64,000 nucleotides of DNA from assembly GCA_019421015.1 (NCBI GenBank), contig JAHZGC010000007.1, positions 23,397-87,396 of the forward strand, in the 5' to 3' direction. Of the stretch, positions 4,669 to 63,698 are shown in pieces; positions within the stretch are counted from its first letter, which is position 1; every line of letters begins with the position of its first letter. A program made the position numbers and the translations under genes. The notes beneath the pieces were generated by a model that did not search any database, was not told where the DNA came from, and was given only the letters and a program-made list of their open reading frames with translations. Source of the stretch: Coriobacteriaceae bacterium. Lineage in GTDB: Bacteria; Actinomycetota; Coriobacteriia; Coriobacteriales; UMGS124.

Positions 4669-5865
4669 ATGGGAACGAGCGCGCTTTCGGCCGAGACCCT
4701 GATGCTGGCGGGAATCGGGATGACCTACGACACCGCCTTCAAGCTCATCTTTTCAGAAAAGTCGGTACTGGCCTTTATCCTACGTGGGTGTGTGGGCGGT
4801 TATGACGGCATGACCCCTCGCGAAATAGAGCGGTACATCACCTACGGCCCCGTGGCACATTCCATCCCCATAGCACCCGGACTTACCAACGCCCCGGGCA
4901 GCCCGCTCTTCGAACGGGGTGGGGAACCAACGTCGCTGTGCGGCGGCCGCACCGAGGACAAGGTGCCCTACCAGGGGCAGACCGCCTTCGACTTCTACTT
5001 CGAGGCCACGGCCCCGCAGGACGGCACGACCGTAGGCATCCACGTGGACGTGGAAGGACAGGCCGCCTACGACGACGGCACATACCCCATGGAGCACCGC
5101 GCCCAGTTTTACGCCGCACGCCTGCTCTCGTCCCAGTACGGCCGGGAATTCGTCCACTCCCACTACGAGAACCTCAAGCGGGTGTACTCGGTCTGGCTCT
5201 TTGCCGACGGGCCCCAGGAACTCCGCGGAAGCGTTTGGTCCACAGAGACGTCGTGGTGCCTCCGCGAGGTGCCCGGCACAGAGAACGGCCGGTCCAAAAG
5301 CCCGCGCCCCTGCAACCTCATGAACATCGTGTTCGGATTTATGGGAGGCCGAGAGGAAGGAGGCCCGGCCCATGCGGACGTTATCGACCTGCTCAACGTC
5401 CTCTTCGAACGCGAGAAATCCAACCACTCCAAGCGTGATATCCTGGAACGGGAGTTCTCCATCGTCGTAACCCCAGGATTGGAGGCCGGTTCCATGGCAC
5501 TCGACGAAATCAACGAGGGTATGGTCCGTATGCTCGAACGGCGGTTAAGTGAGAAATGGCTAGCCGAGGGGCGCACCGACGGCTTGGAGGAAGGCCGACA
5601 GCAGGGACTGGCAGAAGGCCGCGCAGAAGGACTGGCCAAGGGCAGGGAGGCCGGGCTCATAGAGGGTCGAGAGGCCGGGCTTGCAGAGGGCAGGGAGGCC
5701 GGGCTTGCGAAGGGGTTGGAAGATGGGCGGCGCTCAGCCTTGGTCTCCTCCATCCGCAGCCTTGAAAAGAAGCTCGGCCTGGCACCTGAAGCCGCCATGG
5801 ACGCGCTGGAGATATCTCCGGCAGAGCGCGGGGCGCTTATGGAGCAGCTCGCACATACCCAATAA
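4669..5865 (+). CDS. Rpn/YhgA-like PD-(D/E)XK recombination-promoting nuclease / putative transposase with C-terminal EGRxxGLx repeats
   Basis: Has the N-terminal DTAFKLIFSEK motif and a nuclease core pattern (FDFYFEA...GIHVDVEGQ...R.QFYAARL...Y..LKRVYSVWLF). The C-terminal tandem (A/E)EGR..GL repeats are typical of this family. Confidence 0.6.
   Translation: MGTSALSAETLMLAGIGMTYDTAFKLIFSEKSVLAFILRGCVGGYDGMTPREIERYITYGPVAHSIPIAPGLTNAPGSPLFERGGEPTSLCGGRTEDKVPYQGQTAFDFYFEATAPQDGTTVGIHVDVEGQAAYDDGTYPMEHRAQFYAARLLSSQYGREFVHSHYENLKRVYSVWLFADGPQELRGSVWSTETSWCLREVPGTENGRSKSPRPCNLMNIVFGFMGGREEGGPAHADVIDLLNVLFEREKSNHSKRDILEREFSIVVTPGLEAGSMALDEINEGMVRMLERRLSEKWLAEGRTDGLEEGRQQGLAEGRAEGLAKGREAGLIEGREAGLAEGREAGLAKGLEDGRRSALVSSIRSLEKKLGLAPEAAMDALEISPAERGALMEQLAHTQ
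5564..5727 (+). repeat. Coding tandem repeat, ~24-nt (8-codon) period, inside the Rpn-like gene
   Basis: Protein reads AEGRTDGL EEGRQQGL AEGRAEGL AKGREAGL IEGREAGL AEGREAGL AKGLEDGR. The DNA units are near-identical (gagggcagggaggccgggcttgc occurs twice). Confidence 0.6.
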
Positions 5866-8102: not shown

Positions 8103-10334
8103 ATGACCATCCGCGACACTGCCATTTCGCGCCGCTCCTTTGTGGGGGCCTCGGCCCTGGGGGCTGCGGCCTGCGCCCTCGGCGGCCTTAGGACCGTAGA
8201 GCCGGCCACCGCTGCCGAGGCTGCCGCCGCCGAAGAGACAACCTACGGTTACACGTCGTGCACGATGTGCAACCAGGTCCCGTTCTGCGGCCTGCGCGCC
8301 ACACTCAAGGACGGCTGCATCGTCCGCGTCGACGGCAACCCCGACCACCCCAAGAACAAGCCGTGCGTCAAGGGCCTCACGAGCGTCCAGGCGCTCTACG
8401 ACCCCAACCGCCTGCTCTACCCGGTCAAGCGCACGAACCCCGAGAAGGGCGTGGGCATCGACCCGGGCTGGGAGCGCATCAGTTGGGACGAGGCCCTCGA
8501 CACCATCGCCGCCAAGCTCAACGAGGCCAAGGAGACCTACGGGGCCGACTCGGTCATCTTCAGCGCCGGCGACCCGAAGGAGAACATCCCGGCCCTCGAC
8601 CGCGTGGGCGCGCTGTTCGGCACTCCCAACATCGGCTACGGCCGCGCCCAGTGCTCGTTTGCCCTCTCCATGGCCAACGTCCTCACCTTCGCCGGCGGAG
8701 CGGTGACCCTGCCTAACGCCGACACCAAGGTCCACCTGCAGTGGGGCTCCAACATCGCCTGGTCGATGTGCACCGGCCCCAAGTCGTTCAAGCCGCTCGT
8801 GGACCTCAAGCGGGCCGGCGTCAAGTACATCGTCGTCGACACGCGCCTCACCCCCACGGTGAGCCAGCTCGCCGACGTCTTCTTGCAGCCACGCCCCGGC
8901 ACCGACGGCGCCCTGGCCCTCGCCATGGCCAACGTCATCATCAGCGAGGACCTCTACGACCACGAGTTCGTGGAGAACTGGACCCACGGTTTCGAGGAGT
9001 ACGCAGCTTACGTCGCCGACTTCACCCCCGAGCGCGGCGAGGAGATTACGGGCGTCCCGGCGGAGAAGATCCAGGAGGCTGCGCGGCTCTGGGCCCAGGC
9101 CGGCCAGGGCACGCTGTGGTGCGGCCCCCACGCCACCGTCCACCACTCGAACGGCGTGCAGTCCACCCGTGCGATTCTGTTGCTCAACGCCCTCATGGGC
9201 TACTACGACAAGGAGGGCTGCGTCAAGGTCTCTCCCGCAACCCCGGGCGACTCCTACGACTACGGTGCCCCGAGCTCGTTCAGGCTCTACGACGTCATGG
9301 ACGAGAACAAGGACCGCCGCGCCGGCGTCGACCGCTGGCCCGTGTGGTCGCTGACCGAGCGCCACGTGCAGAACAACGGTCTCGTGGAGTTCATCAACGA
9401 CGGCCTGCTGCACGCCGGCCTGTTCGTGGGCACCAACGTGATGGTCTTCCCCCAGACCAGGCTCTACCAGGACGCCCTCGCCAAGCTCGACTTCGCCGCC
9501 GCCGTCGACCTCCATCTGAACCCCGCCACGCACGACCTCATGGACATCGTGCTCCCCACCTGCGTGTGCTGGGAGCGCCAAGCCCCCTACAAGCTCTACG
9601 GCAACAAGCTGTTCTGGAACGAGGTCGTGGTGCCGCCGGCGGGAGAGGCCCGCGAGGACTGGAAGATCCTGCTCGACCTGGGCTGCCGCCTCGGATACGA
9701 AGAGGAGTGCTTCAACGGCGACATCGAGGCGGCGCTCCAAGCCATGCTCGACATCAGCGGCTTTGACGTGACGACACAGCAGATCCGCGACGCCTTGCCC
9801 GGCTGCTACGAGCTGCCCGTGTCGGCCGAGGAGTGGGTGCCCAAGAAGTACGAGCAAAACGGCTTCAAGTCGCCGTCGGGCAAGGTCGAGTTCTGCTCGA
9901 CCATCCTGGAGAAGTGCGGCTTCAACGGCCTGCCCGTTTACGAGGAGCCGCACATCAGCCCCGTTTCGACCCCCGAGCTCTACGAGCAGTACCCGCTCAT
10001 CCTCGAGACCGGCAGCCGCGTCCCCTGGTACGTGCACTCCAAGTACCGCCACACGCCCTGGCTGAACCAGTTCATGCCCGAGCCCGTGGTAATCGTGAGC
10101 CCCGAAGACGCCGAGGAGCGCGGCTTGGCGGAAGGCGACGCGGTGCGCCTCTACAACCAGCTCGGAGAGCTCACGCTCAAGGTGGCCGTCTCCAACATCC
10201 AGCAGCCCGGCGTCGTGGAGCTGCACCATGGCTGGGAGCAGGCCAACTCCTGCGAGCTAATCGACCACGTGTTCGATCCGATTTCGGGCTTTCCCACCTA
10301 TAAGGACGGCCTCTGCCAGATCGAAAAGCTGTAG
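8103..10334 (+). CDS. Molybdopterin (bis-MGD) oxidoreductase catalytic subunit, DMSO reductase family, Tat-exported
   Basis: 743 aa. Has a twin-arginine signal (AISRRSFVGASALG), an N-terminal Cys cluster (CTMCNQVPFCG...C), and molybdopterin oxidoreductase plus C-terminal molydopterin dinucleotide-binding domain patterns. It starts 1 nt after the FeS gene stop. Confidence 0.9.
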   Translation: MTIRDTAISRRSFVGASALGAAACALGGLRTVEPATAAEAAAAEETTYGYTSCTMCNQVPFCGLRATLKDGCIVRVDGNPDHPKNKPCVKGLTSVQALYDPNRLLYPVKRTNPEKGVGIDPGWERISWDEALDTIAAKLNEAKETYGADSVIFSAGDPKENIPALDRVGALFGTPNIGYGRAQCSFALSMANVLTFAGGAVTLPNADTKVHLQWGSNIAWSMCTGPKSFKPLVDLKRAGVKYIVVDTRLTPTVSQLADVFLQPRPGTDGALALAMANVIISEDLYDHEFVENWTHGFEEYAAYVADFTPERGEEITGVPAEKIQEAARLWAQAGQGTLWCGPHATVHHSNGVQSTRAILLLNALMGYYDKEGCVKVSPATPGDSYDYGAPSSFRLYDVMDENKDRRAGVDRWPVWSLTERHVQNNGLVEFINDGLLHAGLFVGTNVMVFPQTRLYQDALAKLDFAAAVDLHLNPATHDLMDIVLPTCVCWERQAPYKLYGNKLFWNEVVVPPAGEAREDWKILLDLGCRLGYEEECFNGDIEAALQAMLDISGFDVTTQQIRDALPGCYELPVSAEEWVPKKYEQNGFKSPSGKVEFCSTILEKCGFNGLPVYEEPHISPVSTPELYEQYPLILETGSRVPWYVHSKYRHTPWLNQFMPEPVVIVSPEDAEERGLAEGDAVRLYNQLGELTLKVAVSNIQQPGVVELHHGWEQANSCELIDHVFDPISGFPTYKDGLCQIEKL

Positions 10335-10429: not shown

Positions 10430-11110
10430 ATGGACCACGACCTTCTGGCCACGCTCGACGACCGCGCCGCAACCTACGGGCTTCTCGCCCGCCTGCTCGG
10501 CCACGAGATCGACGCCGAGCTGCTCGCCTCCCTTGCCGACGGCGGCTTTGCCACCGACACCGGGTCGGCCGCCGTGGACGAGGGGGCGCGTCTCATGAAC
10601 GCCTACCTTCGGGCGGCGACCGACCCCGACGCCGCCCGCACCGAGCTCGCCGTGGACTTCGCGCGCCTCTTTGTGGTGCGCACCCGCAACGCCGCCGGCC
10701 TCCCCTACCCCTTCGAGTCGGTCTACACCTCCGACGACGGCTGCACAATGGGCGCGGCCCGCGACGAGGTGCGCCGCATCTACCGCGAGGCCGGCATGGC
10801 CAAGGACGATGCCTGGAACGTGGGAGAGGACCATGTGGCCCTCGAGCTCGAGTTCATGCAGACCCTCGCCGCCCGCACGGCACAGGCCCTGCGCAAGGGC
10901 AACGAGGCCGCGACCGAGCAGCTGCTCGCCCGGCAGGCGGCCTTCATGGATGCGCACCTGCTCAACTGGGTGCCGCGCTTCGCCGATGCCATGGCATGCA
11001 CGGCCCGCACCGACTTCTACCGCGGGCTCGCCCAGTTCCTGGCCGGCTGGCTGCAGGAGGACCGCGCGACGCTGGCGGAGCTGGGGGCGCAAGGAGAGGG
11101 CTGCGCGTAA
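10430..11110 (+). CDS. TorD/DmsD-family redox-enzyme maturation chaperone
   Basis: 226 aa. Has the family hallmarks YGLLARLL, LAVDFARLF, PYPFESVY, EDHVALELEFM and FL..WL. Confidence 0.8.
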   Translation: MDHDLLATLDDRAATYGLLARLLGHEIDAELLASLADGGFATDTGSAAVDEGARLMNAYLRAATDPDAARTELAVDFARLFVVRTRNAAGLPYPFESVYTSDDGCTMGAARDEVRRIYREAGMAKDDAWNVGEDHVALELEFMQTLAARTAQALRKGNEAATEQLLARQAAFMDAHLLNWVPRFADAMACTARTDFYRGLAQFLAGWLQEDRATLAELGAQGEGCA

Positions 11111-11222: not shown

Positions 11223-12062
11223 ATGGCCAGGTACGGCATGGCGATCGATACCGAGCACTGCACGGGATGCCAGACCTGCGTCGTGGCGTGCCAGATGGAG
11301 CATGCGCTGCGGCCCCAGGTGGCTTGGACCCGGGTCGACACCGTGGAATGGGGCCGCTGGCCCGACGGCGGCCGCCTGCACCTGCCCCATGGGTGCCTCC
11401 ACTGCGACGAACCGGCCTGCGTGGAGGTGTGCCCCACCGGCGCGAGCTTTGCGGGAGGCGGGGCAGCCTCGCTGGTCGACCACGAGCTGTGCATAGGATG
11501 CGGCGTGTGCGCGGCGGCGTGCCCCTACGGCGCCCGCACGATAAACCGCGCCGACCGCTGGTTCTTCGACGCCGCAGACCCGGCCCCCTACGAACGCGAC
11601 GGAACCCCCCTCGGCACGGCGGAGAAATGCACGCTGTGCGTCGAGCGACGCGAGGCGGGGCGCGACCCGGCGTGTGTGAGCAGCTGCCCCACGGGCGTGC
11701 GCGCCTTCGGCGACCTCGACGACCCGGCCGACCCCATCTGGGACTTCATAGCCGAGACCGGCGCCGAGCGGCTTGCGGGCACCGCCACCTACTACGCCCA
11801 CCCTACTTACGCGCGCGACGTCGACGTGGCCGAGAATATCCGCGCCTTGCGAAAGTCCCCGCAGGAAGCGCCGGTATCGGGGGGCCTGCGCACCGACCGC
11901 GCCAGCCCGGCCGTCATTGCGGCGGCGACCGTAGGGGGTGCCGCCGCCGTCGGGGCTATCGCGCTGGGCACCGTGCGGGCGCGCAGCAGGAAGGCGGCCG
12001 CGGAGGAACCGAGAGGTGCGGGCGGCCCGGAAGCCCCGAAGGCGGGGCGGCGCGATGTTTAG
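11223..12062 (+). CDS. Second 4Fe-4S ferredoxin subunit (NrfC/HybA-like) with a C-terminal transmembrane anchor
   Basis: Paralog of 7451..8101 (MARYGMAIDTEHCTGCQTCVVAC..., four Cys clusters) plus a C-terminal hydrophobic helix (AVIAAATVGGAAAVGAIALGTV). It overlaps the next gene by 8 nt (ATGTTTAG). Confidence 0.8.
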   Translation: MARYGMAIDTEHCTGCQTCVVACQMEHALRPQVAWTRVDTVEWGRWPDGGRLHLPHGCLHCDEPACVEVCPTGASFAGGGAASLVDHELCIGCGVCAAACPYGARTINRADRWFFDAADPAPYERDGTPLGTAEKCTLCVERREAGRDPACVSSCPTGVRAFGDLDDPADPIWDFIAETGAERLAGTATYYAHPTYARDVDVAENIRALRKSPQEAPVSGGLRTDRASPAVIAAATVGGAAAVGAIALGTVRARSRKAAAEEPRGAGGPEAPKAGRRDV

Positions 12063-13077
12063 CGAGCTCGTGACGTGGTACCTCTTTCTGGGGGGAGCAG
12101 GGGCCGCCCTAGCCGCCCTTCTCTCCCTCTCTGACCTTCTATATGGCTGCAGAACCCGGCTCGCCGCGTTGCGCGGGGGCTCACGTACGCCCAGTACGCA
12201 TCGCCCCCGCGTGCCTTGCGAGCCGGAACCTGCCTTTGGCGGGGGCTGCAGAACCCGGCTCGCCGCGTTGCGCGGGGGCTCACGTACGCCCAGTACGCAT
12301 CTTGGCGTGCTTGCGTGGACCGACGGGCTTTCGCGCAAACTGTTCGCGCGGGGGTATGCGGCGGCGGGGATCGCGCTGCTGCTGGGGGTTCTGTGCCTGC
12401 TGGTCGACCTGGGGCGCCCCGAACGCTTCTACTACGTGTTCCTGCGGCCCACCGCCTCGATTCTCACGTTCGGGTCGTTCGTGCTGGGCGCCACGCTGTG
12501 CTGCGCGGTCGCGCTCGGCACCGTCGCGCTGGGGAACCTCTCCCGCGTGCCCCGGCCCCTGGTGCGCGCCGTCGAGGTCCTGTGCGTCGTCTGCGGCACA
12601 GCGACGGCCGTCTACACAGGCGCCCTGCTCGCCGCCATGGCGCAAGCGAACCCCACCTGGAACGCCGCGCTGCCGTTCTTGTTTGCCTTCTCGTCGTTCT
12701 CGGTGGGATGCGCAGGAGCACTGGCCTGCCTTCTTCCTTTTGAGAACGCCCCGGCCGCCGTGGTGCGTGCCTTTGCCCACATCGACCTGGCCTGCATAGG
12801 CCTGGAAGCCCTTGCCCTACTCACCTACCTGGCGCTGGCCTGCGTCGACGCGGGTTCGGTCTCCCGAGCGGCCCTGCTCCTCTGGGGAGAAGGCCGGTGG
12901 AGTGGCTGGGCCGTCTTCGCGGTATGCGCCCTGGGGGTGCCCCCGATCCTGGAGGTGTTCTCCTTACACCACGACCAGTCCCTCCCCCTCGCCTGGTCGC
13001 TGGTGTTTGTGGCCGTCGGCGGATTTTTCTTGCGGGCGTGCGTGGTGGGCGCGCCGGCAGTCTGGGGAGTAGGCTAG
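12055..13077 (+). CDS. NrfD/PsrC-like polytopic membrane quinol-interaction subunit carrying an in-frame tandem repeat insertion
   Basis: ATG at 12055. TM1 is WYLFLGGAGAALAAL, then LVDLGRPERFYYVF and further TM helices, as in the NrfD family. Between TM1 and TM2 lie ~66 codons encoded by two family A repeat units (GCRTRLAALRGGSRTPSTH appears twice). Confidence 0.7.
   Translation: MFSELVTWYLFLGGAGAALAALLSLSDLLYGCRTRLAALRGGSRTPSTHRPRVPCEPEPAFGGGCRTRLAALRGGSRTPSTHLGVLAWTDGLSRKLFARGYAAAGIALLLGVLCLLVDLGRPERFYYVFLRPTASILTFGSFVLGATLCCAVALGTVALGNLSRVPRPLVRAVEVLCVVCGTATAVYTGALLAAMAQANPTWNAALPFLFAFSSFSVGCAGALACLLPFENAPAAVVRAFAHIDLACIGLEALALLTYLALACVDAGSVSRAALLLWGEGRWSGWAVFAVCALGVPPILEVFSLHHDQSLPLAWSLVFVAVGGFFLRACVVGAPAVWGVG
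12145..12330. repeat. Family A hairpin repeat, two tandem units inside the NrfD-like CDS
   Basis: 12145-12202 and 12244-12301 are an exact 58-bp direct repeat, checked base by base, with a 99-bp period. Unit 1 is a full hairpin (CCGGCTCGC:GCGAGCCGG, GCGGGGGC:GCCCCCGC, CGTAC-N5-GTACG); the 3' arm of unit 2 is degenerate. Confidence 0.8.
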
Positions 13078-13153: not shown

Positions 13154-13567
13154 ATGGGCGACCCCCTGTTCGAGGTCGACGAAAACAGCGGCATCCCCAT
13201 CTGGATCCAGCTGCGCAACCGCCTCATGTACCTCATCGACTCGGGCCATTACGCCAACGGCGACCGCCTCCCCACGGTGCGGGCCCTGGCCGCCGACCTC
13301 AACGTGAACTACCACACGGTGAACAAGGTCTACACCAACCTCGAGTACGAGGGCTACATCAGCTCCAAGCGCGGGCGCGGGGCGTTCGTCTGCAAAGAGG
13401 CCGTTCCGGTCGGCGAAGAGGTGCCCGGCGACATCGTGCTCGCCGAGGCCATCCGCCAGTGCGTCGAGCTCGGCATGACCCTTAACGATGTGGAGACGCA
13501 CTTTGCCCGCGCACTCGAGGCCGCCCGCGCCGGGGCGGACCCTGCAAATCCCACAACGGCAAAGTGA
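13154..13567 (+). CDS. GntR-family (YtrA-like, short) transcriptional regulator
   Basis: 137 aa with a winged-HTH (LPTVRALAADLNVNYHTVNKVYTNLEYEGYISSKRGRGAFV) and a short C-terminal tail. Confidence 0.8.
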   Translation: MGDPLFEVDENSGIPIWIQLRNRLMYLIDSGHYANGDRLPTVRALAADLNVNYHTVNKVYTNLEYEGYISSKRGRGAFVCKEAVPVGEEVPGDIVLAEAIRQCVELGMTLNDVETHFARALEAARAGADPANPTTAK

Positions 13568-13574
13568 GGTTGCC

Positions 13575-14528
13575 ATGAAGCGCGCCCCTCTCCCCCAGAA
13601 CACCGACAGCAGCGCCTTGGTAGAGCCGGCCCACGCGCCGTTCGTGCCCTCCAAGCCGAGCCGGGGCGGTGCGCTGGTGTTCGGCTTTGTGCTGGCGGCG
13701 GCCGTGTTCGCCCTGACGCTGACCATCTGCTACTTCGGCTTTGGCGTGCTCGATCTCTGGAGTATCGCGCTGGCGCTGGTGCTCGGCGTGCTGGCCCCCA
13801 TGACCATGCACATCTCCATGGAGTGGGAGCGGCTGGTCATCTTTAGGTTCGGTGCCTTCAACCGCGTGGCGGGGCCGGGCCTGGTGTTCATGATCCCCGT
13901 GGTGGAGCAGGTGGCCTGCCACGTGGACATGCGCACCGTCGCGACCCCCTTCGGGGCGGAGAAGACCCTCACAAGCGACCTGGTGCCCCTCGACGTGGAC
14001 GCCGTGCTCTTCTGGATGGTCTGGGACGCCAAGAAGGCCTGCACCGAGGTGGAGGACTACTGCTCGGCGGTGCTCTACGTGGCCCAATCGACCCTGCGCG
14101 ACGCCATAGGCCGGGCGAGCGTGGCCGAGGTGGCCTTGAGCCGCGACCAGCTCGACAAGGAGCTCAAGGAGTCCATCGAGCGAGAGTGCGAGCCCTGGGG
14201 TGTCGCCGTGCTCTCGGTCAAGGTGCGCGACATCGTGGTGCCCGCCGAGCTGCAAGAGGCCATGTCGCTGGAGGCCCAGGCCGAGCGCGAGCGCAACGCG
14301 CGGATCATCCTGGCCGGGGCCGAGGAGGAGATCGCCGAGATGGTCGCCGCGGCGGCCGACGCCTACGAGGGCAAGGAGGCCGCCCTCAAGCTGCGCACGC
14401 TCAACCTGCTCTACGAGAGCATCCGCAAGTCGGGCGGCACCGTGGTCACCGTGCCGTCGGCCATCAGCGACGGGCTCGGCGCGGGCGATGCGCTGGAAGA
14501 CGCGCTCAAGGCGGTCGCAAAGGGGTAG
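13575..14528 (+). CDS. SPFH/band-7 (stomatin/slipin-like) membrane protein
   Basis: ATG at 13575. Has an N-terminal TM hairpin followed by an SPFH core (EWERLVIFRFG...GPGLVFMIPVVE...D.V.FW.V.D...LR..IG...EL.....L; VKVRDIVVPAELQEAM...AEREARA-like). Confidence 0.85.
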   Translation: MKRAPLPQNTDSSALVEPAHAPFVPSKPSRGGALVFGFVLAAAVFALTLTICYFGFGVLDLWSIALALVLGVLAPMTMHISMEWERLVIFRFGAFNRVAGPGLVFMIPVVEQVACHVDMRTVATPFGAEKTLTSDLVPLDVDAVLFWMVWDAKKACTEVEDYCSAVLYVAQSTLRDAIGRASVAEVALSRDQLDKELKESIERECEPWGVAVLSVKVRDIVVPAELQEAMSLEAQAERERNARIILAGAEEEIAEMVAAAADAYEGKEAALKLRTLNLLYESIRKSGGTVVTVPSAISDGLGAGDALEDALKAVAKG

Positions 14529-18686: not shown

Positions 18687-18955
18687 GACGGGCTTCTCCT
18701 CTCGAGGCAAAACTGTGCAAGCCGGTGGATTTTACCAGCCTTGAGAAGAAACGGGCAGCTTGAAGGCGGGATTTGACGGAATCAGCGCGAGGGAGGGGCG
18801 GTGTACGGGCATGCGGCACGCATGGCGGAAAATCATGAATGAGAGATTCGGAAAATAGTGATTGCGATATTCGGAAAATCATGAATGGCCAGCGTATAGG
18901 CTTGGCCGACGCACTATACTCCTTCTTTGTCGAAGCCCGTCCCAAGGAGGCCGCC

Positions 18956-31908: not shown

Positions 31909-33772
31909 CGTCGCCTCCCGTGCGTCGCAGGTACAGCTCCCAAAGCGCCGCGACCGTCACCGGGCGGCCGCGGTCGTTCAGGACGTGGTCGGCCGCCAGC
32001 CCGTCGGTGTAGTCGGCCAGCGGATAGACCCCCGCCCCGCCGTCGCGGCCAAGGTGCATCACCGTCGGCACCAGCTCGACGTCGGCGACGCGGGCCTCCC
32101 CGTCGCCGCCGCGCTCGAGCACGAGGCGGGCACAGACCCCCAGCATGCAGGCAAGGTCGTCTTGGACCGCCGCAAAGTTGCCGAGGCCCCAGGCCACGGC
32201 GCACGTCCGTCCGTCAGAACACGCCAGGCGCTCCCACCCCAGGGCCTCGTGGCCGTGGGAGCACAGCACGGCGTCGGCACCGGCGTCGGCCAGGCGCTGC
32301 ACCACCGCCCGCTCAGCCTGCGAGGGGGCGTCGCCGTACTCCTGCCCGATGTGCAGGAAGCACGCCACGAGGTCGACGTCGTCACAGGCCCGAGCGGCCT
32401 CAACCTGGGCGGCGAGCCTTTCGAGGCGCGCCGACGCCAAGGAGGCGTCCTGTTCCCCGGCCTCCGGCACCGCCGCCCCCAGGGCCTCCGCCCCCAAAGA
32501 GGCCACCTCGTAGGCAGACCCCTCGGGCAGCGTGCGGCCGTTCGTTCCATAGGTGGCGTCGAACAACGCGAGCCTGAACCCCCGCACCTCCACCACCGTG
32601 GGCCCGAAAGGTCCGTCGCCCTCGCCGTCGTCGCCCTCGCCGCCCGCAGCGGCATTCCCGCCCGCGCCCGGGACCTGCCGGACGCCGAGCAGCTCCACAT
32701 CGGGACGGCCCTCCCAAAAGGCCAGCGTGTCGGCCAACCCCCGTTCACCGCGGTCGAGTATGTGGTTGCTGGCGCCGAGCACGACGTCGAAGCCCGCCTC
32801 GGCCAGCGCGTCGCCCAGCGCCCAGGGCGTGCCGAAGTACGGGTAGCCGCCGTAGAGCGCCGGGTCGCTCACAAAGGGGGTCTCCTGCCCCACGACCGCC
32901 AGGTCGGCCTCGGCCACCAGCCCTACAACCGGTGCAAACAACGGGCCAAAGTCGAACCCGCCCTCGCCGTCGCGCGCGGCCGCAAGCAAGGCCTCGTGGC
33001 CGATGACGTCTCCAGCTGCGAGCACCGTGGCCCGTTCCACCGGGGTTGCCGCCCCCTCGGCCGCAGCCGCAGAGTCGTCCTCGAGCACAAAGCCCCAGCT
33101 GCCCCAGCGCCACCGGGTCTGCACGCCGCGACGATCGGTCAGGACGAGCGCGCCGCCGGCATCGACGTCCATGGCCGCGATCTCGACCCCCGTCTGCGAC
33201 GACATCCAGCGAGGGCGCAGCTCGCCGCCCTGCCAGCCAAGCACAAAGATGTGCTGGGTGAACTCCTCGCCGTCCTCGGGCTCCTCGACCCAGAACGGCC
33301 GCGAGCTCCCAAAGTTCGCCGCCCGCCATACCAGCAGGACCACCTCGGGCAGCCCGTCTCCGTCGAGGTCGGTCACCCGGCCGTCGCTCACCAGCCACTC
33401 GTCGGGAGAGGAGAAGACCGGCTCGGTCCCCTCGCCCCCCGCCGCCCATAGCTCGAAACGACCGCCGCCCACGAGGACGCCGTCGGGCACACCGTCGCCG
33501 GTAACGTCGGCCTTGTAGACGCGCGCATGCCAGGTCGCCCATGCGGGCGGGGCAACCCACAGGTCGCCCGCGTCCTCGGAGGCAGCGGCCGCCCGCGCAA
33601 AGGCCGCGGAACCCGAGGACCCATCCCCCGCGTCGCCGACATCCACCAACCCCGGGGGGTTCTCCCCCACGAGGGTGCCGACGCCCGCAAGGGCCATCGT
33701 CAGTGCGGCGCTTAGAGCAATCCGCAAAATTGCTGGACAAGGCGCGCGAAGGCGCGGCGTGCTGAGGCACAT
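31898..33772 (-). CDS. Secreted protein: N-terminal FG-GAP/VCBS-like repeats plus CapA (PGA_cap) metallophosphatase-like domain
   Basis: Has DxDxDG loops (DVTGDGVPDGVL, VTDLDGDGLPEVVLL) followed by CapA-family motifs (VLAAGDVIGH..., FGTPWALGDAL..AGFDVVLGASNHILD, HIGQEY, VLCSHGHE). The start is uncertain: ATG at 33772 lies inside a family A repeat, and the alternative is ATG at 33697. The 1109-aa ORF in the track is an overlap artefact. Confidence 0.65.
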   Translation of the reverse strand: MCLSTPRLRAPCPAILRIALSAALTMALAGVGTLVGENPPGLVDVGDAGDGSSGSAAFARAAAASEDAGDLWVAPPAWATWHARVYKADVTGDGVPDGVLVGGGRFELWAAGGEGTEPVFSSPDEWLVSDGRVTDLDGDGLPEVVLLVWRAANFGSSRPFWVEEPEDGEEFTQHIFVLGWQGGELRPRWMSSQTGVEIAAMDVDAGGALVLTDRRGVQTRWRWGSWGFVLEDDSAAAAEGAATPVERATVLAAGDVIGHEALLAAARDGEGGFDFGPLFAPVVGLVAEADLAVVGQETPFVSDPALYGGYPYFGTPWALGDALAEAGFDVVLGASNHILDRGERGLADTLAFWEGRPDVELLGVRQVPGAGGNAAAGGEGDDGEGDGPFGPTVVEVRGFRLALFDATYGTNGRTLPEGSAYEVASLGAEALGAAVPEAGEQDASLASARLERLAAQVEAARACDDVDLVACFLHIGQEYGDAPSQAERAVVQRLADAGADAVLCSHGHEALGWERLACSDGRTCAVAWGLGNFAAVQDDLACMLGVCARLVLERGGDGEARVADVELVPTVMHLGRDGGAGVYPLADYTDGLAADHVLNDRGRPVTVAALWELYLRRTGGDDGR

Positions 33773-33817
33773 GAGCCCGAGCGCAACGAAGTCCAGCGTT
33801 TTTATGGATTGCTCTAG
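33711..33817. repeat. Family A hairpin repeat, long (107-nt) variant
   Basis: Outer stem TAGAGCAATCC:GGATTGCTCTA, stem GCTGGAC:GTCCAGC, bulge AAGGC, apex GTGC-N4-GCAC, and the conserved CACATGAGCCCGAGCGCAACG shared with 63593-63698. Its terminal CTAG contains the DUF3160 stop codon. Confidence 0.7.
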
Positions 33818-36208: not shown

Positions 36209-36238
36209 TTGACTTCTTACAGGTTCCTGTTGTATCTT
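36209..36238 (+). promoter_or_regulatory. Candidate promoter with a GGTTCCTGTT direct repeat upstream of marR
   Basis: TTGACT (36209-36214), an 18-nt spacer, then TATCTT (36233-36238). GGTTCCTGTT occurs twice (36222-36231 and 36250-36259), a possible MarR operator. Confidence 0.3.
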
Positions 36239-36294
36239 TGTTCTTGCCGGTTCCTGTTAATCTTTTGCACCGACGCAACGGCAAAGGAGCTCCC

Positions 36295-50595: not shown

Positions 50596-50772
50596 GCGGG
50601 TTCTCGGCCGCAAGGCGCCGGGAGGCGATGCGTACGCCTGGTACGTGAGCCTCCCGGGAACGTGGCGGCCGAGGTTCCGCAACTACAGCGGGTTCTGGCT
50701 CGCAAGGCGCGCAGGTGCGATGCGTACATCTGGTACGTGAGTACCTGCGCAACGCCGCGAGCCAGGTTCCGC
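50596..50772. repeat. Family A hairpin repeat, two tandem 85-nt units between the catalytic and FeS subunit genes
   Basis: The units span 50596-50680 and 50688-50772, a 92-nt period. Each forms GCGG/CCGC, a 9-bp stem, an 8-9-bp stem and the apex CGTAC-N5-GTACG. The stems differ between units but are compensated: CTCGGCCGC:GCGGCCGAG vs CTGGCTCGC:GCGAGCCAG, and CCGGGAGGC:GCCTCCCGG vs GCGCAGGT:ACCTGCGC. Confidence 0.8.
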
Positions 50773-50778
50773 AGCACG

Positions 50779-53700
50779 CTAGTCCACGTGGTAGATGCTG
50801 GTGCCCTCGCCGCCGGGGAGCCACGCCTTCAGGCGCGGGTCGTCGGCGGAGCAGATGATGGGCGTGCCGTCGTTGCCGCACGGCACGGGGTTGCCGAAGG
50901 GCGAGTTCTCGGCCGTGGCCTTGTAGATCTTGACCGGGTAGGTACGCACGTTGGCCGAGCCGTTGTACTTGTCCTGGCAGGTGCGGTCCACGAGGCAGTT
51001 GATGCACGAGAGCTCAAAGCCGCCGCCGGCCTGGTTGAGCTCGGGGTACCACCACTGGTGCTCGGCGTTGATGGTGCCGGGCTCGATGCCGTAGTAGATG
51101 TCGACGGTCTGGCGCACCTTGCCCCACGGGCTCTCGATCCACGCCCAGTCGCCCTGCTCGAGGCCGAGCTCCTCGGCGTCGACGGGGTTGATCTCCATGC
51201 GGGGCACGGGCCACAGCTCGCGGCACCAGGGCAGCTGACGGTGCTCGGAGTGGAAGTACACCGGGATGCGGCGGCCGGTGATGCAGGTGAAGGGGTACTC
51301 CTCGTAGGTCGCGGCGTCGGCCACGGGGCTGTGGGCAGGCTCCTGGTAGTAGGGCAGGGCCTCGCTCGTAAAGCCGGGGGCCAGTTCGGGGCCGTCCTCA
51401 CCCTCAGGGTAGACGCTCTCGATGGTGGTGCACCAGAACTCGTGCTTCATCGTGGGCGTCGGGAAGCCGGGAATGCCGATGGGCCCGCGGTAGGTCTGCT
51501 GGTGCATGCCGGTGCGGTAGGCCTGGCCGGTCTCGTAGCGGCGGAAGGTGCCCCACTCCTCGGGGACCTCCTCCTTCATGTTCCACCAGCCGTGCTCCTG
51601 GAAGGCGTCGCGCACCTCTTCCCAGCTGTTGTAGGGCACGATGCCGTCGCGGAACAGGGCGAGGTTCAGGGCCTCGATCTCGATGTCCTTGCCGCTGTTC
51701 TCGAGCCAGGGGTCGTCGCCGTCGAAGGCCGGCACGCCGAAGTACTTGGAGAGCTCCATGAAGTAGCGCGGGTCGCTCTTGCACTCGCCGGGAGGCTCCA
51801 CGGCGCGCACGCCGAGACCCCAGGCGCCCTGGGAGCCCTGGGACATGCGCCAGGTGTTCATCTCGAGCCAGTGGCAGACGGGCAAAAGGATGTCGGCCGC
51901 GCCCGAGGTGGGCGAGTGCCACAGGTTTGCCTCGAAGAGGAAGTCGAGCTTGTTCAGGGCCTCCCAGTTGTACTGGGCGTTGGCCATGTTCATGTGATCG
52001 CCCGAGCCGATCATGCCGCCGTGGATGTGGTAGGGGGCGTCGGGCTCCTGGTGCGCGGCCTCCATGACGGCGTTGCAGTCGGCCCAGACGTTGTACCAGT
52101 AGAGCAGCGGCATCTTGTCGTTGCCGCACATCTTCATCGAGAGCTCGGGGGCGGGCATGTAGGCAAAGGCCGCCATGGCGGGCAGCACCGCGCACATGTC
52201 GCCGGCGCCGGTCCAGCCGTTGGTGGCGCCGCGCTGGCCGCCGGGGGTGTCGATGGCGCCCACCATGGCGCAGGCGGCCATGATGGCGCGGCAGTTCTGG
52301 GTGGAGTTGCCGGCATGCTCGACGCCCAGGCCGTAGTTGATGCCGCCGTTGGGCAGGTCGGGGTCGACGCGGGTCGCCCAGGCCAGGCAGGCCTCCTCGA
52401 TCTTCTCGGCCGGCACACCGGTGACCTCGGCGGTCTTCTCGGGCGTCCACTCCTGGAGGTAGGCGCTCCAAAGGTCCCACACGGGGCGGCCAGTGTGGGT
52501 GGTGCCGTCCTTGAGCACGACCTCGAACTCGCCGGTCAGGGCCGGGTCGATCATCGGGTCAAAGTCGGAGAGGTCGGCGATCCAGCCCTTGGCCTTGGCG
52601 GCGTCGGCGCGCTGGCGCGAGGTGTCCTCCTCGCGGCCGGAGGTCTGGGGCTTCCACTCCTCGCCCTCCCAGTGGGCGTCCTCGGGATCGGCCTGCCAGT
52701 AGGTCCAGCGGCCGCCCAGCTCATCCCAGACCAGGTAGCGCTTGGGGTTGCCGTCGCCCTCGACCTCCCAGTCCACCATCGAGGGGTCGATGTCGGCCTC
52801 GGTGAGCAGGCGGCTCTTGTACTCGAAGGGGCCGCTCCCCTTCTCGTTGGTGCCGGTGTAGCCGGTAGGCTCCATGTCGGGCACCACGATGAACGGGGCG
52901 TTGGACCAGCGCTTGAGGAACTTGTAGTCGGCCAGGTCGTGCTCCAGGATCACGTGGCACCAGCCCAGGGCCAGGGCGGCGTCGGTGCCGGGGCGCAGGT
53001 TCAGCCAGTGGTCGGCCTTGGAACCCAGGTTGGTCTGGCGCGGGTCCACCGAGATGTAGGTGTCGGCCTCGGTGGCCACGTCGATGGCCATGCGGGCGGA
53101 GTCGTCGTAGTTGGACTGCGACTGCTCGGTGGCCCACTGCACGAACACGGGGGCGTGGGCGTCGACGTCGCTCCACGACCAGGCCTCCACGTTGTCGAGG
53201 GCGCTCGCAAAGTGGCGCGGGCCCTTGCAGACCTGGTAGGCGGCCACCACGTTGGGAGACCCGAAGAGCTCGGTGCACATGCCGGCGTCGGACTGCATGC
53301 ACCACTGACGGCCGGTGCCGCACCAGCTGAACAGCGACTCGGGGCCGTACTTCTCGCGGATCTGCATGATGTTGTCGGCGATGGTCTGGTAGGCCTCTTC
53401 CCAACCGATGCGCACCCAGCCGGGATCGTCGGAGCCCTTGGGGTTGGTGCGCTTAAGCGGGTAGCGCAGGCGGTCGGGGTGATAGGCGGCCTGCAGCGAC
53501 GCCTGACCCTTGGAGCAGTGGCTGCCCTGGGTGGCAAAGCAAGACTCGTCGCCCTCGGTGCGGATGACGCGGCCGTCCTTGACGTAAACCCACACGCCGC
53601 ACTCGGACTTGCCGCAGCCGCGGCAGCACGAGCGGATCTTCTTGACGCCCTCTTCGGCGGCGGCCGCCTGCTCGGCGGTCTCGGCAGCAAGCGCCATACG

Positions 53701-63592: not shown

Positions 63593-63698
63593 CTAGAGCG
63601 TTTGAGGGAGCGTCTCGCAAGGCACGCGAGGGTGAAGCGTGCTTATTGCACATGAGCCCGAGCGCAACGCAGCGAGACGGTTCCTCAATACGCTCTAG
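63593..63698. repeat. Family A hairpin repeat, long (106-nt) variant
   Basis: Outer stems are CTAGAGCG:CGCTCTAG and TTGAGG:CCTCAA, with stem CGTCTCGC:GCGAGACG, bulge AAGGC, and apex GTGC-N5-GCAC. The core CACATGAGCCCGAGCGCAACG is identical to the one at 33768-33788. Its terminal CTAG contains the stop codon of the upstream ferredoxin-domain gene. Confidence 0.7.

Follow-up and report, generated by a model that had tools for sequence, protein, structure and literature searches.

We examined a palindromic repeat that lies inside a protein-coding gene in a 64,000-nt stretch of DNA from a Coriobacteriaceae bacterium (hereafter, the window). The gene encodes a membrane anchor of the NrfD/PsrC type, and the repeat belongs to a family of hairpin-forming elements, family A, that is usually found in tandem arrays just downstream of stop codons. 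The insert is probably a fragment of such a post-stop array that was captured in frame long ago and has been tolerated in a loop of an anchor that remains functional. This account is built on the anatomy of the insert, its family membership, its age, the pattern of selection, and its length alleles, all of which were observed.

Anatomy and age of the insert

The features of the gene and the repeat, as positions in the window, are:

12055 to 13077, plus strand: coding sequence of the NrfD/PsrC-type membrane anchor, 340 aa, host of the insertion (open reading frame [ORF] with ATG start, Pfam NrfD match, matches of the AlphaFold2 [AF2] model)
12145 to 12202, plus strand: exact 58-nt direct repeat, copy 1 (base identity)
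12244 to 12301, plus strand: exact 58-nt direct repeat, copy 2, 99 nt from copy 1 start to start (base identity)
12149 to 12233, plus strand: family-A unit 1, a complete 85-nt imperfect palindrome that encodes (C)RTRLAALRGGSRTPSTHRPRVPCEPEP (covariance model R1, 103.5 bits, E = 5e-22, positions 1-85)
12234 to 12247, plus strand: 14-nt array-type spacer CTTTGGCGGGGGCT, a stop-free family variant (likeness to family spacers)
12248 to about 12324, plus strand: family-A unit 2, with left arm and apex intact up to 12301 (covariance model R1, 28.7 bits)

A preliminary description of this DNA reported the exact 58-nt repeat and its 99-nt period, and we confirmed both: the 58-mer has two exact matches in the window and none in 100 dinucleotide-preserving shuffles. 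Both copies lie, as described, within the NrfD-like gene, the plus-strand ORF from 12055, which matches Pfam NrfD. The translation, the ortholog alignment, and the AF2 model agree in placing them between the first and second transmembrane segments (TM1 and TM2), upstream of LVDLGRPERF, and GCRTRLAALRGGSRTPSTH does occur twice in the translation. The same description supposed roughly two repeat units and an insertion of about 66 residues, and here it needs correction: the units are not equal. There is one complete 85-nt unit, then the 14-nt spacer, and then a second unit that has a left arm and apex only; the net gain over insertion-free orthologs is 132 nt, or 44 codons.

Unit 1 gives the best match in the window to the covariance model of family A, and more distant orthologs of the gene do not have the insert, so the earlier reading as an insertion of this family stands. 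As RNA, unit 1 forms a hairpin with a minimum free energy of -56.4 kcal/mol (z = -4.4). The spacer resembles gttttggcgggct, a family spacer from two other loci (L021 and L022). Because it is a natural variant of the family's spacers, the inserted DNA is a piece of an array (unit, spacer, and partial unit) and not two separate insertions. In unit 2, the right arm is replaced or degenerate and merges into the ancestral, conserved LAWTD codons, and there is no significant canonical hairpin. The right arm of unit 1 (R1) can pair with either left arm (L1 or L2). Unit 1 begins 87 nt past the stop codon of the upstream Fe-S gene, inside the NrfD coding sequence, and not at the location about 10 nt past a stop that is usual for the family.

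The reading frame is open across the insert, as the preliminary description said, but on its own this is weak evidence. The insert has no stop codon in any of the three sense frames, so it only needed a length divisible by 3, for which the prior is about 1/3.

The NrfD gene starts with the ATG at 12055 (not 12057), and its start overlaps the stop (TAG) of the Fe-S gene by 8 nt (junction ATGTTTAG). Its 340-aa product scores 50.4 bits against Pfam NrfD (PF03916; gathering cutoff 25.8; E = 3e-13), and the alignment spans only aa 95-331, so the profile match breaks at the insert. An AF2 model from a 13-sequence alignment has a predicted template modeling score (pTM) of 0.77 and 9-10 helices, which are confidently placed. 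Its best matches in the PDB, by Foldseek, are ActC (8k9e_C, E = 1.5e-4) and PsrC (2vpw_C, E = 1.3e-3), and the protein is predicted to have the eight-helix membrane fold of PsrC and ActC. Residues 44-85 have a predicted local distance difference test score (pLDDT) below 50, and the rest of the eight-helix NrfD fold is intact in the model. Together with the purifying selection described below, this bears out the suggestion that the insert is tolerated in a loop.

We compared the window's gene with its orthologs. Ten more distant orthologs (P0003-P0012, 37-55% identity) have a basic loop of 9-10 residues where the window's protein has 53. At least one of these, P0005 (on locus L003), is syntenic (TorD-Fer4-NrfD-GntR). 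In contrast, a closer ortholog, P0002 (on locus L001), which is also syntenic (NrfD-GntR-Band7) and is 70% identical to the window's protein (75% in nucleotides), has the same two units, a homologous spacer (ATCTGGCGGGGGTC), and the same truncation of unit 2. The two units in L001 are clearly diverged from each other (about 80% identical). A metagenome scan for closer NrfD orthologs found none above 48% identity and hence no intermediate states. Comparison with orthologs thus upheld an insertion, because the more distant proteins lack the loop, but not its supposed very recent date, because a well-diverged ortholog has it too.

Nucleotide identity between the window and L001 is 0.78-0.83 in the insert, which is typical of the neighboring coding DNA and indicates that there was no recent transfer. 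We therefore rejected recent recombination as the source of the shared insert: identity across it is not above that of the flanking coding DNA. Within unit 1, 12 of the 85 positions differ between the window and L001, mostly in the apical loop and at two compensated pairs (3/83, A-U to G-C; 31/56, G-C to C-G). Both left arms share lineage-specific variants, GGCTGCAG in the window's lineage versus GGTCGCGG in that of L001, and this pattern indicates that left arms 1 and 2 evolve in concert.

Divergence around the gene is a mosaic. The GntR-family and Band-7 genes downstream of NrfD are 90-97% identical in nucleotides (window 13162-14455 versus L001 1900-3300), whereas the neighboring Fe-S and NrfD genes are only about 75-80% identical, which suggests recombination at the operon boundary.

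Selection, length alleles, and competing explanations

We estimated selection by the Nei-Gojobori method from one pairwise comparison, the window versus L001 (337 codons). Here, dS and dN are the synonymous and nonsynonymous divergence and omega is their ratio (dN/dS).

Outside the insert, 272 codons: dS 0.65, dN 0.19, omega 0.30
Insert, 55 codons: dS 0.31, dN 0.25, omega 0.79
Unit 1 alone: dS 0.23 (versus 0.65 for the rest of the gene)

By these estimates, the NrfD gene is constrained, the insert peptide is nearly free, and the hairpin DNA is slower to change at silent sites.

Among close strains, the 90% cluster around the window's protein has three length classes, all of them in frame: 340, 307, and 296 aa. 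The 340-aa class includes an NCBI record (P0028) that is identical to the window's protein. The 307-aa alleles have lost exactly one 99-nt period, cleanly, as confirmed in the DNA. The 296-aa class has one member (L105), in which only the left arm GCAGAACCCGGCTCGCCG is left, followed by GC and the tail. The contigs whose 743-aa catalytic subunit is identical to that of the window fall into two groups:

Two-unit NrfD form: L205, L203, and the 457-kb contig L202
One-unit NrfD form: L200, L201, L204, and the k141 MEGAHIT contig L107

The two forms sometimes come from the same study and pipeline. A table of single-nucleotide polymorphisms (SNPs) separates two deep haplotypes, and both lengths occur on each, so either a unit was lost at least twice or the lengths were shuffled by recombination. 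Neither the 307-aa nor the 296-aa allele has a significant long hairpin (z = -1.0 and +0.9, respectively), which argues against an essential role for the hairpin.

Two other observations concern these strains. First, in the Fe-S gene (11223-12062), about 50 linked SNPs define two deeply diverged haplotypes among loci L107-L113 and L200-L205, in strains whose catalytic subunit is identical, which suggests recombination within the operon. Second, L202, which has the two-unit form, has an extra C at its position 8270 (12371 in the window), within the TM2 codons, and NrfD is given an internal start by the gene caller. This is probably a long-read (homopolymer) error, although it could be a real frameshift allele.

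The gene for the NrfD anchor is in one operon with those for a molybdopterin catalytic subunit and a 4Fe-4S subunit, as identified by Pfam on the neighboring ORFs, and the same gene order is found in L002, L003, and L200-L205:

8103 to 10334, plus strand: molybdopterin oxidoreductase catalytic subunit, with the twin-arginine signal SRRSFV (Pfam PF00384, PF01568, and PF04879; N-terminal sequence)
10430 to 11110, plus strand: TorD/NarJ-type chaperone (Pfam Nitrate_red_del, E = 4e-33)
11223 to 12062, plus strand: 4Fe-4S subunit, whose stop overlaps the NrfD start codon (Pfam Fer4 families; sequence)

The 3' end of the 4Fe-4S gene (11880-12054) encodes a hydrophobic segment, VIAAATVGGAAAVGAIALGTV, and then an Arg/Ala/Pro-rich tail that is poorly conserved, with many indels between the window and L001 (identity 0.5-0.6). 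The hydrophobic segment may be a membrane anchor at the C terminus. Because the insertion-free loops are Arg-rich and the conserved DLGRPERF follows TM2, we infer that the TM1-TM2 loop of NrfD faces the cytoplasm, on the other side from where the protein meets the exported Fe-S and catalytic subunits.

We propose the following course of events. An array fragment (a unit, a spacer, and about 0.6 of a second unit) would have entered the codons of the short basic TM1-TM2 loop of the anchor, which is presumably the quinol-interacting NrfD-type subunit of a molybdoenzyme that is exported by the twin-arginine translocation (Tat) system. As the element is GC-rich and stop-free, and as the net gain is 132 nt, the gene would have stayed open, and its product would have gained a 44-residue Arg/Pro-rich loop that is predicted to be disordered. 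If this loop is cytoplasmic, at a distance from the quinone site and the Fe-S subunit, then it would leave function undisturbed. The insertion predates the split of two NrfD alleles that are now at a dS of about 0.65. As protein, the insert is probably a nearly neutral passenger, but as DNA it would still be evolving as a repeat and as a palindrome. The hairpin of unit 1 would be kept by paired changes in both arms, most likely through arm-to-arm correction or conversion. The 58-nt identity would drive recurrent in-frame deletions of 99 nt, and these, with a further loss of 33 nt, would give the 340-, 307-, and 296-aa alleles. As candidate routes of entry, a dimer may have been transposed and its second right arm lost afterwards, or there may have been template switching into an array. 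GGCTCG is found both in the ancestral loop and in stem 1, and the LAWTD codons are similar to the family's right arm, so microhomology-guided integration is conceivable.

Several points weigh against this account. The 296-aa loop, RTRLAGPGA, aligns without a gap to RSRLGRSDR of P0005 and has the length of the insertion-free loops, which leaves some room for the 296-aa allele to have kept an empty site instead of having arisen by a secondary deletion. The tail of unit 2 (GCGTGC-TTGCGTGGACCGAC) resembles the family's right arm, and the exact boundaries of the insertion are ambiguous. The loop's placing in the cytoplasm relies on the positive-inside rule and on the topology of DmsC and PsrC. The organism with L001 is near-identical to that of the window in the GntR and Band-7 genes, and the operon alleles may have been exchanged by recombination; if so, the age of the insertion concerns the NrfD alleles and not the species, and the alleles may be older than the divergence of the organisms. 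That the insert is translated and that the enzyme functions are deductions from the selection statistics above, which come from a single pair of sequences. Finally, the low dS of unit 1 and its two compensated pairs could reflect selection for a functional hairpin.

This last point leads to the explanation that best survives besides capture of a tolerated fragment. The hairpin might have been co-opted as a regulator of the operon and be kept by selection on its structure, not on the peptide. It could be a partial terminator or attenuator, a stabilizer of the mRNA, or a site about 95 nt along the NrfD message where translation pauses and membrane insertion is thereby aided. In its favor, the stable hairpin of unit 1 is retained in both of the diverged alleles through the two compensatory double changes, while dS in unit 1 is about a third of that in the rest of the gene and omega is about 0.7-0.8. 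Also, the insert has the same orientation to transcription as the post-stop copies, and the choice of R1 between two left arms resembles an attenuator. But the alleles without a significant long hairpin are common, and they arose by unit loss at least twice or were shuffled by recombination. The U-tract has decayed (CUUUGG in the window, AUCUGG in L001). A simple scan for terminators found nothing, although it was not designed for long interrupted hairpins. Furthermore, compensation across the family is almost exclusively Watson-Crick, without G-U intermediates, which suggests a strand-symmetric process at the DNA level (such as correction of an extruded palindrome or recognition of a DNA hairpin) and not selection on RNA. 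Overall, we consider co-option unlikely.

The preliminary description also raised the possibility that the gene is becoming a pseudogene, with the insertion as its first lesion and the frame open by chance. The stop-free sense frames make this easier to imagine, as do the extra C downstream of the insert in one 457-kb contig and an omega (0.30) that is not very low. However, this omega was measured over 272 codons at a dS of 0.65, more than 25 contigs have an intact gene for 340, 307, or 296 aa, and the length changes (99 nt, 33 nt [possibly 12 + 21], or 132 nt) are all divisible by 3. The conserved NrfD motifs, the confident fold, and the operon partners are all intact, and a lone +1 indel is typical of long-read error. 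Ongoing decay is thus very improbable.

It is scarcely plausible that there was no insertion at all, with the loop being ancestral to a subfamily of NrfD and lost elsewhere, or the repeat family being derived from the gene. The loop is present in the 70%-identical ortholog, and it begins with R[ST]RL in both the 296-aa allele and P0005. But the loop is just 9-10 aa long in the ten orthologs that are more distant (of which at least one is syntenic), the insert includes an array spacer, and its sequence is canonical for a family whose extragenic copies in other genomes number in the hundreds.

Lastly, we give next to no credence to the tandem duplication or the one-unit alleles being assembly artefacts. 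The 58-nt repeat does exceed the k of 31 in Logan and the metaSPAdes default of 55, Logan contigs have no 340-aa forms, and several contigs break within the gene. But the two-unit form is found in several independent assemblies (the window, L002/L205, L203, the 457-kb L202, and NCBI's P0028) with strain-specific SNPs within the units, and the units of L001 are clearly diverged. One-unit forms occur in the k141 MEGAHIT contig, and also in scaffolds whose pipelines gave two-unit forms as well.

The repeat family and its wider distribution

To describe family A, we used an alignment of 33 units (A5), a covariance model that was built mostly from copies in other genomes, and a scan of a genome collection for the apex motif (CTCACGTAC-N5-GTACGCATCGC), which gave at least 101 stretches. 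In the alignment, 98.1% of the cells are paired, and 17 of the 29 pairs show changes on both sides. The covariation score is 0.446, as compared to 0.166 for shuffled alignments and about 0.05 for slid registers, and G-U pairs are almost absent. The model has 29 base pairs, conserved internal loops, and a conserved apex, and unit 1 of the insert matches it over its full length. In Coriobacteriales or Collinsella-like metagenome-assembled genomes (MAGs), among the matches listed, the unit reads GCGGAACC-stem1-YGCGTTC-stem2-CTCACGTAC-N5-GTACGCATCG-stem2'-CGCCTTGC-stem1'-GAACCCGC, and the units are usually in direct tandem arrays with spacers of 10-14 nt (e.g., GTTTTAGTGGG).

Three-quarters of the arrays among the matches listed (45 of 60) start 1-9 nt downstream of the stop codon of an ORF of at least 100 aa on the same strand, and only five are near a convergent stop. 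The exceptions that we inspected had short ORFs upstream or were false positives of the regular expression. The copy in NrfD is the only clearly intragenic one among these roughly 60 arrays, and its orientation relative to transcription is the usual one. The window has three intergenic loci of the family:

50596 to 50772, minus strand: two tandem units (50688-50772 and 50596-50680), starting 6 nt past the TAG of a 1002-aa ORF (covariance model, 97-98 bits; Tandem Repeats Finder [TRF], period 92)
63604 to 63686, minus strand: diverged unit, 8 nt past a TAG stop (58.9 bits)
33725 to 33804, minus strand: diverged unit, 9 nt past the TAG of a 760-aa ORF (38.1 bits)

In all three, a minus-strand ORF ends in TAG 6-9 nt ahead of the first unit (window positions 50779, 63695, and 33814). 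In the Coriobacteriales loci L006-L104, among the matches listed, the spacers and 5' leaders of the family often contain TAG or TAA, and the element may supply or target stop codons. Many of the Collinsella-like copies among the matches listed have a T-run (GTTTT or TTTTT) after the hairpin, which is weak in the window's lineage.

Some units are longer (104-137 nt) and carry a further hairpin, CCACGGGACTCGTCGCAAAGGGCGCTCCGTG, nested between GCGTTCT and stem 2 (e.g., L006 5700-5816 on the minus strand of the locus, L057 1306-1420, and L078 3226-3340). Such nesting indicates that the element may grow in a modular way. Arrays identical to the Collinsella-like ones occur in a bin labeled Acutalibacteraceae (L025, L032, L046, L064, L094, and L099), and the same Coriobacteriaceae-type arrays occur in a bin labeled Alistipes onderdonkii (L054, L081, L084, and L104); both are likely to be bin contamination. 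The window also has other, short tandem arrays, found by TRF, that are unrelated to family A (5590-5708, 18826-18887, and 36214-36265, with periods of 24, 23, and 27).

Database searches did not link the family to a described one. The window had no Rfam matches at the gathering threshold, the intergenic copies in E-value mode matched only sX9 (E = 1.6), and at the gathering threshold 12 loci from four phyla matched only tmRNA and tRNA. The apex motif had no match in IMG/VR, nor had the unit in PLSDB, and hence there was no sign of a phage or plasmid vector. We found no description of the family in the literature by taxon, keyword, or sequence string, and only a review of Rickettsia palindromic elements (RPEs) and transposable elements of the miniature inverted-repeat type (MITEs) was useful. 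All-versus-all clustering of ORFs from about 100 repeat-bearing loci in three phyla (the loci, not whole genomes) gave only generic or housekeeping families and no shared transposase. When proteins were searched for other in-frame insertions, with the peptide of the insert or a profile made from translated family members as the query, P0001, which contains the query, was not recovered. We also considered whether the units could be integron attC sites and rejected this, as the AAC/AAC internal loop is not complementary and is at odds with R''/R' boxes.

A core of about 45 nt, GCGWTS-N7-8-CTCACGTAC-N5-GTACGCATCGC-N6-7-CGCYTTGC, is found well beyond the Coriobacteriales. Among the matches listed, it occurs in multi-copy long hairpins in Coriobacteriales, in Desulfurivibrionaceae/Desulfobulbales MAGs, and in Rhizomicrobium and other Alphaproteobacteria, and also in Solirubrobacter, Conexibacter (Solirubrobacterales), and a Nevskia MAG. 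The outer stems around the core are lineage-specific. The alphaproteobacterial hairpins listed often have CTAG at both ends, overlapping the stop codons of convergent genes. The core itself has no match in Rfam, IMG/VR, or PLSDB. Tentatively, family A might be a local branch of an undescribed, cross-phylum class of hairpins that adjoin stop codons, although we are doubtful.

Relation to known repeats and implications

RPEs are palindromic repeats that lie in frame within protein-coding genes (Ogata et al. 2000, as summarized in PMC10969869). The insert in NrfD behaves most like these: it is a multi-copy palindrome of about 100 nt, it lies in frame in a metabolic gene, it would be read through as a peptide that is compatible with the fold, and it is common to diverged orthologs. 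It differs in several ways. RPEs enter many unrelated genes, whereas family A has one intragenic copy versus at least 45 post-stop arrays. The RPE peptide is conserved, whereas that of the insert is not (omega of about 0.8). The insert comprises 1.6 units from a tandem array, and its unit number varies between strains. Lastly, the host is a high-GC, gut Coriobacteriia-like organism and not Rickettsia, and sequence homology is very unlikely. Thus, the behavior appears to match that of RPEs, minus recurrence in many genes and a conserved peptide.

Other known repeats are more distant. Like the REP, BIME, and REPIN elements, which are mobilized by RAYT proteins, family A consists of short GC-rich imperfect palindromes that cluster outside of genes at their 3' ends and have compensatory changes in their stems. 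But family A lacks the conserved 5' GTAG (its units run from GCGGAACC to GAACCCGC), its 85-nt units form direct tandem arrays and not inverted doublets, and it is most conserved at the apex and not at the ends. We saw no RAYT-like gene beside family-A copies in the loci examined, which is a weak test. As for MITEs, the flanks listed show no evident direct duplication, we identified no parent element, and the whole unit is a palindrome.

TRIT of Mycobacterium tuberculosis and Pseudomon-Rho are terminator-like repeat families. The pneumococcal SPRITE is also named as a repeat family (PMC10969869). Family A resembles these three in having repeated, stable hairpins in the sense orientation directly 3' of genes. 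It differs in its tandem arrays, its conserved asymmetric internal loops, the apex that is common across phyla, and the weak T-runs in the window's lineage. Repeat-unit number also varies between strains in variable-number tandem repeats (VNTRs) such as the mycobacterial MIRU type. As in in-frame VNTRs, unit number at the NrfD locus differs between close strains and every allele is in frame. However, the NrfD locus has only one or two units, the unit is a palindromic extragenic element and not a coding repeat, and nothing points to phase or antigenic variation.

The insertion in NrfD itself belongs to a type of event that is already known, and the cross-phylum core is the newest lead. For those who annotate genomes, the case is a caution that a Pfam alignment can break at such an insert and that gene callers truncate the gene when there are assembly errors. 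Similarly, assemblies with short k fragment or under-represent the two-unit allele.

If our account is correct, then this is a clean, datable case outside of Rickettsia in which a functional protein has taken up a selfish palindromic repeat as a disordered loop. It would still behave as a repeat in populations (through unit loss, concerted evolution, and compensated stems) while the host gene is under purifying selection. The repeat family, with its post-stop location, its tandemly arrayed hairpins, and its cross-phylum core, is possibly of more importance than the insertion. Neither Rfam nor the literature that we searched contains it, and it offers a target for work on the evolution of terminators or on a mobilization system. 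If the cross-phylum class is real, then it would imply either conserved machinery that recognizes the hairpin (a nuclease, a transposase, or a terminator-binding factor) or the horizontal spread of a mobile, terminator-like module. The insertion in NrfD would then be a rare, exaptation-grade accident in which the hairpin is still maintained within a coding sequence.

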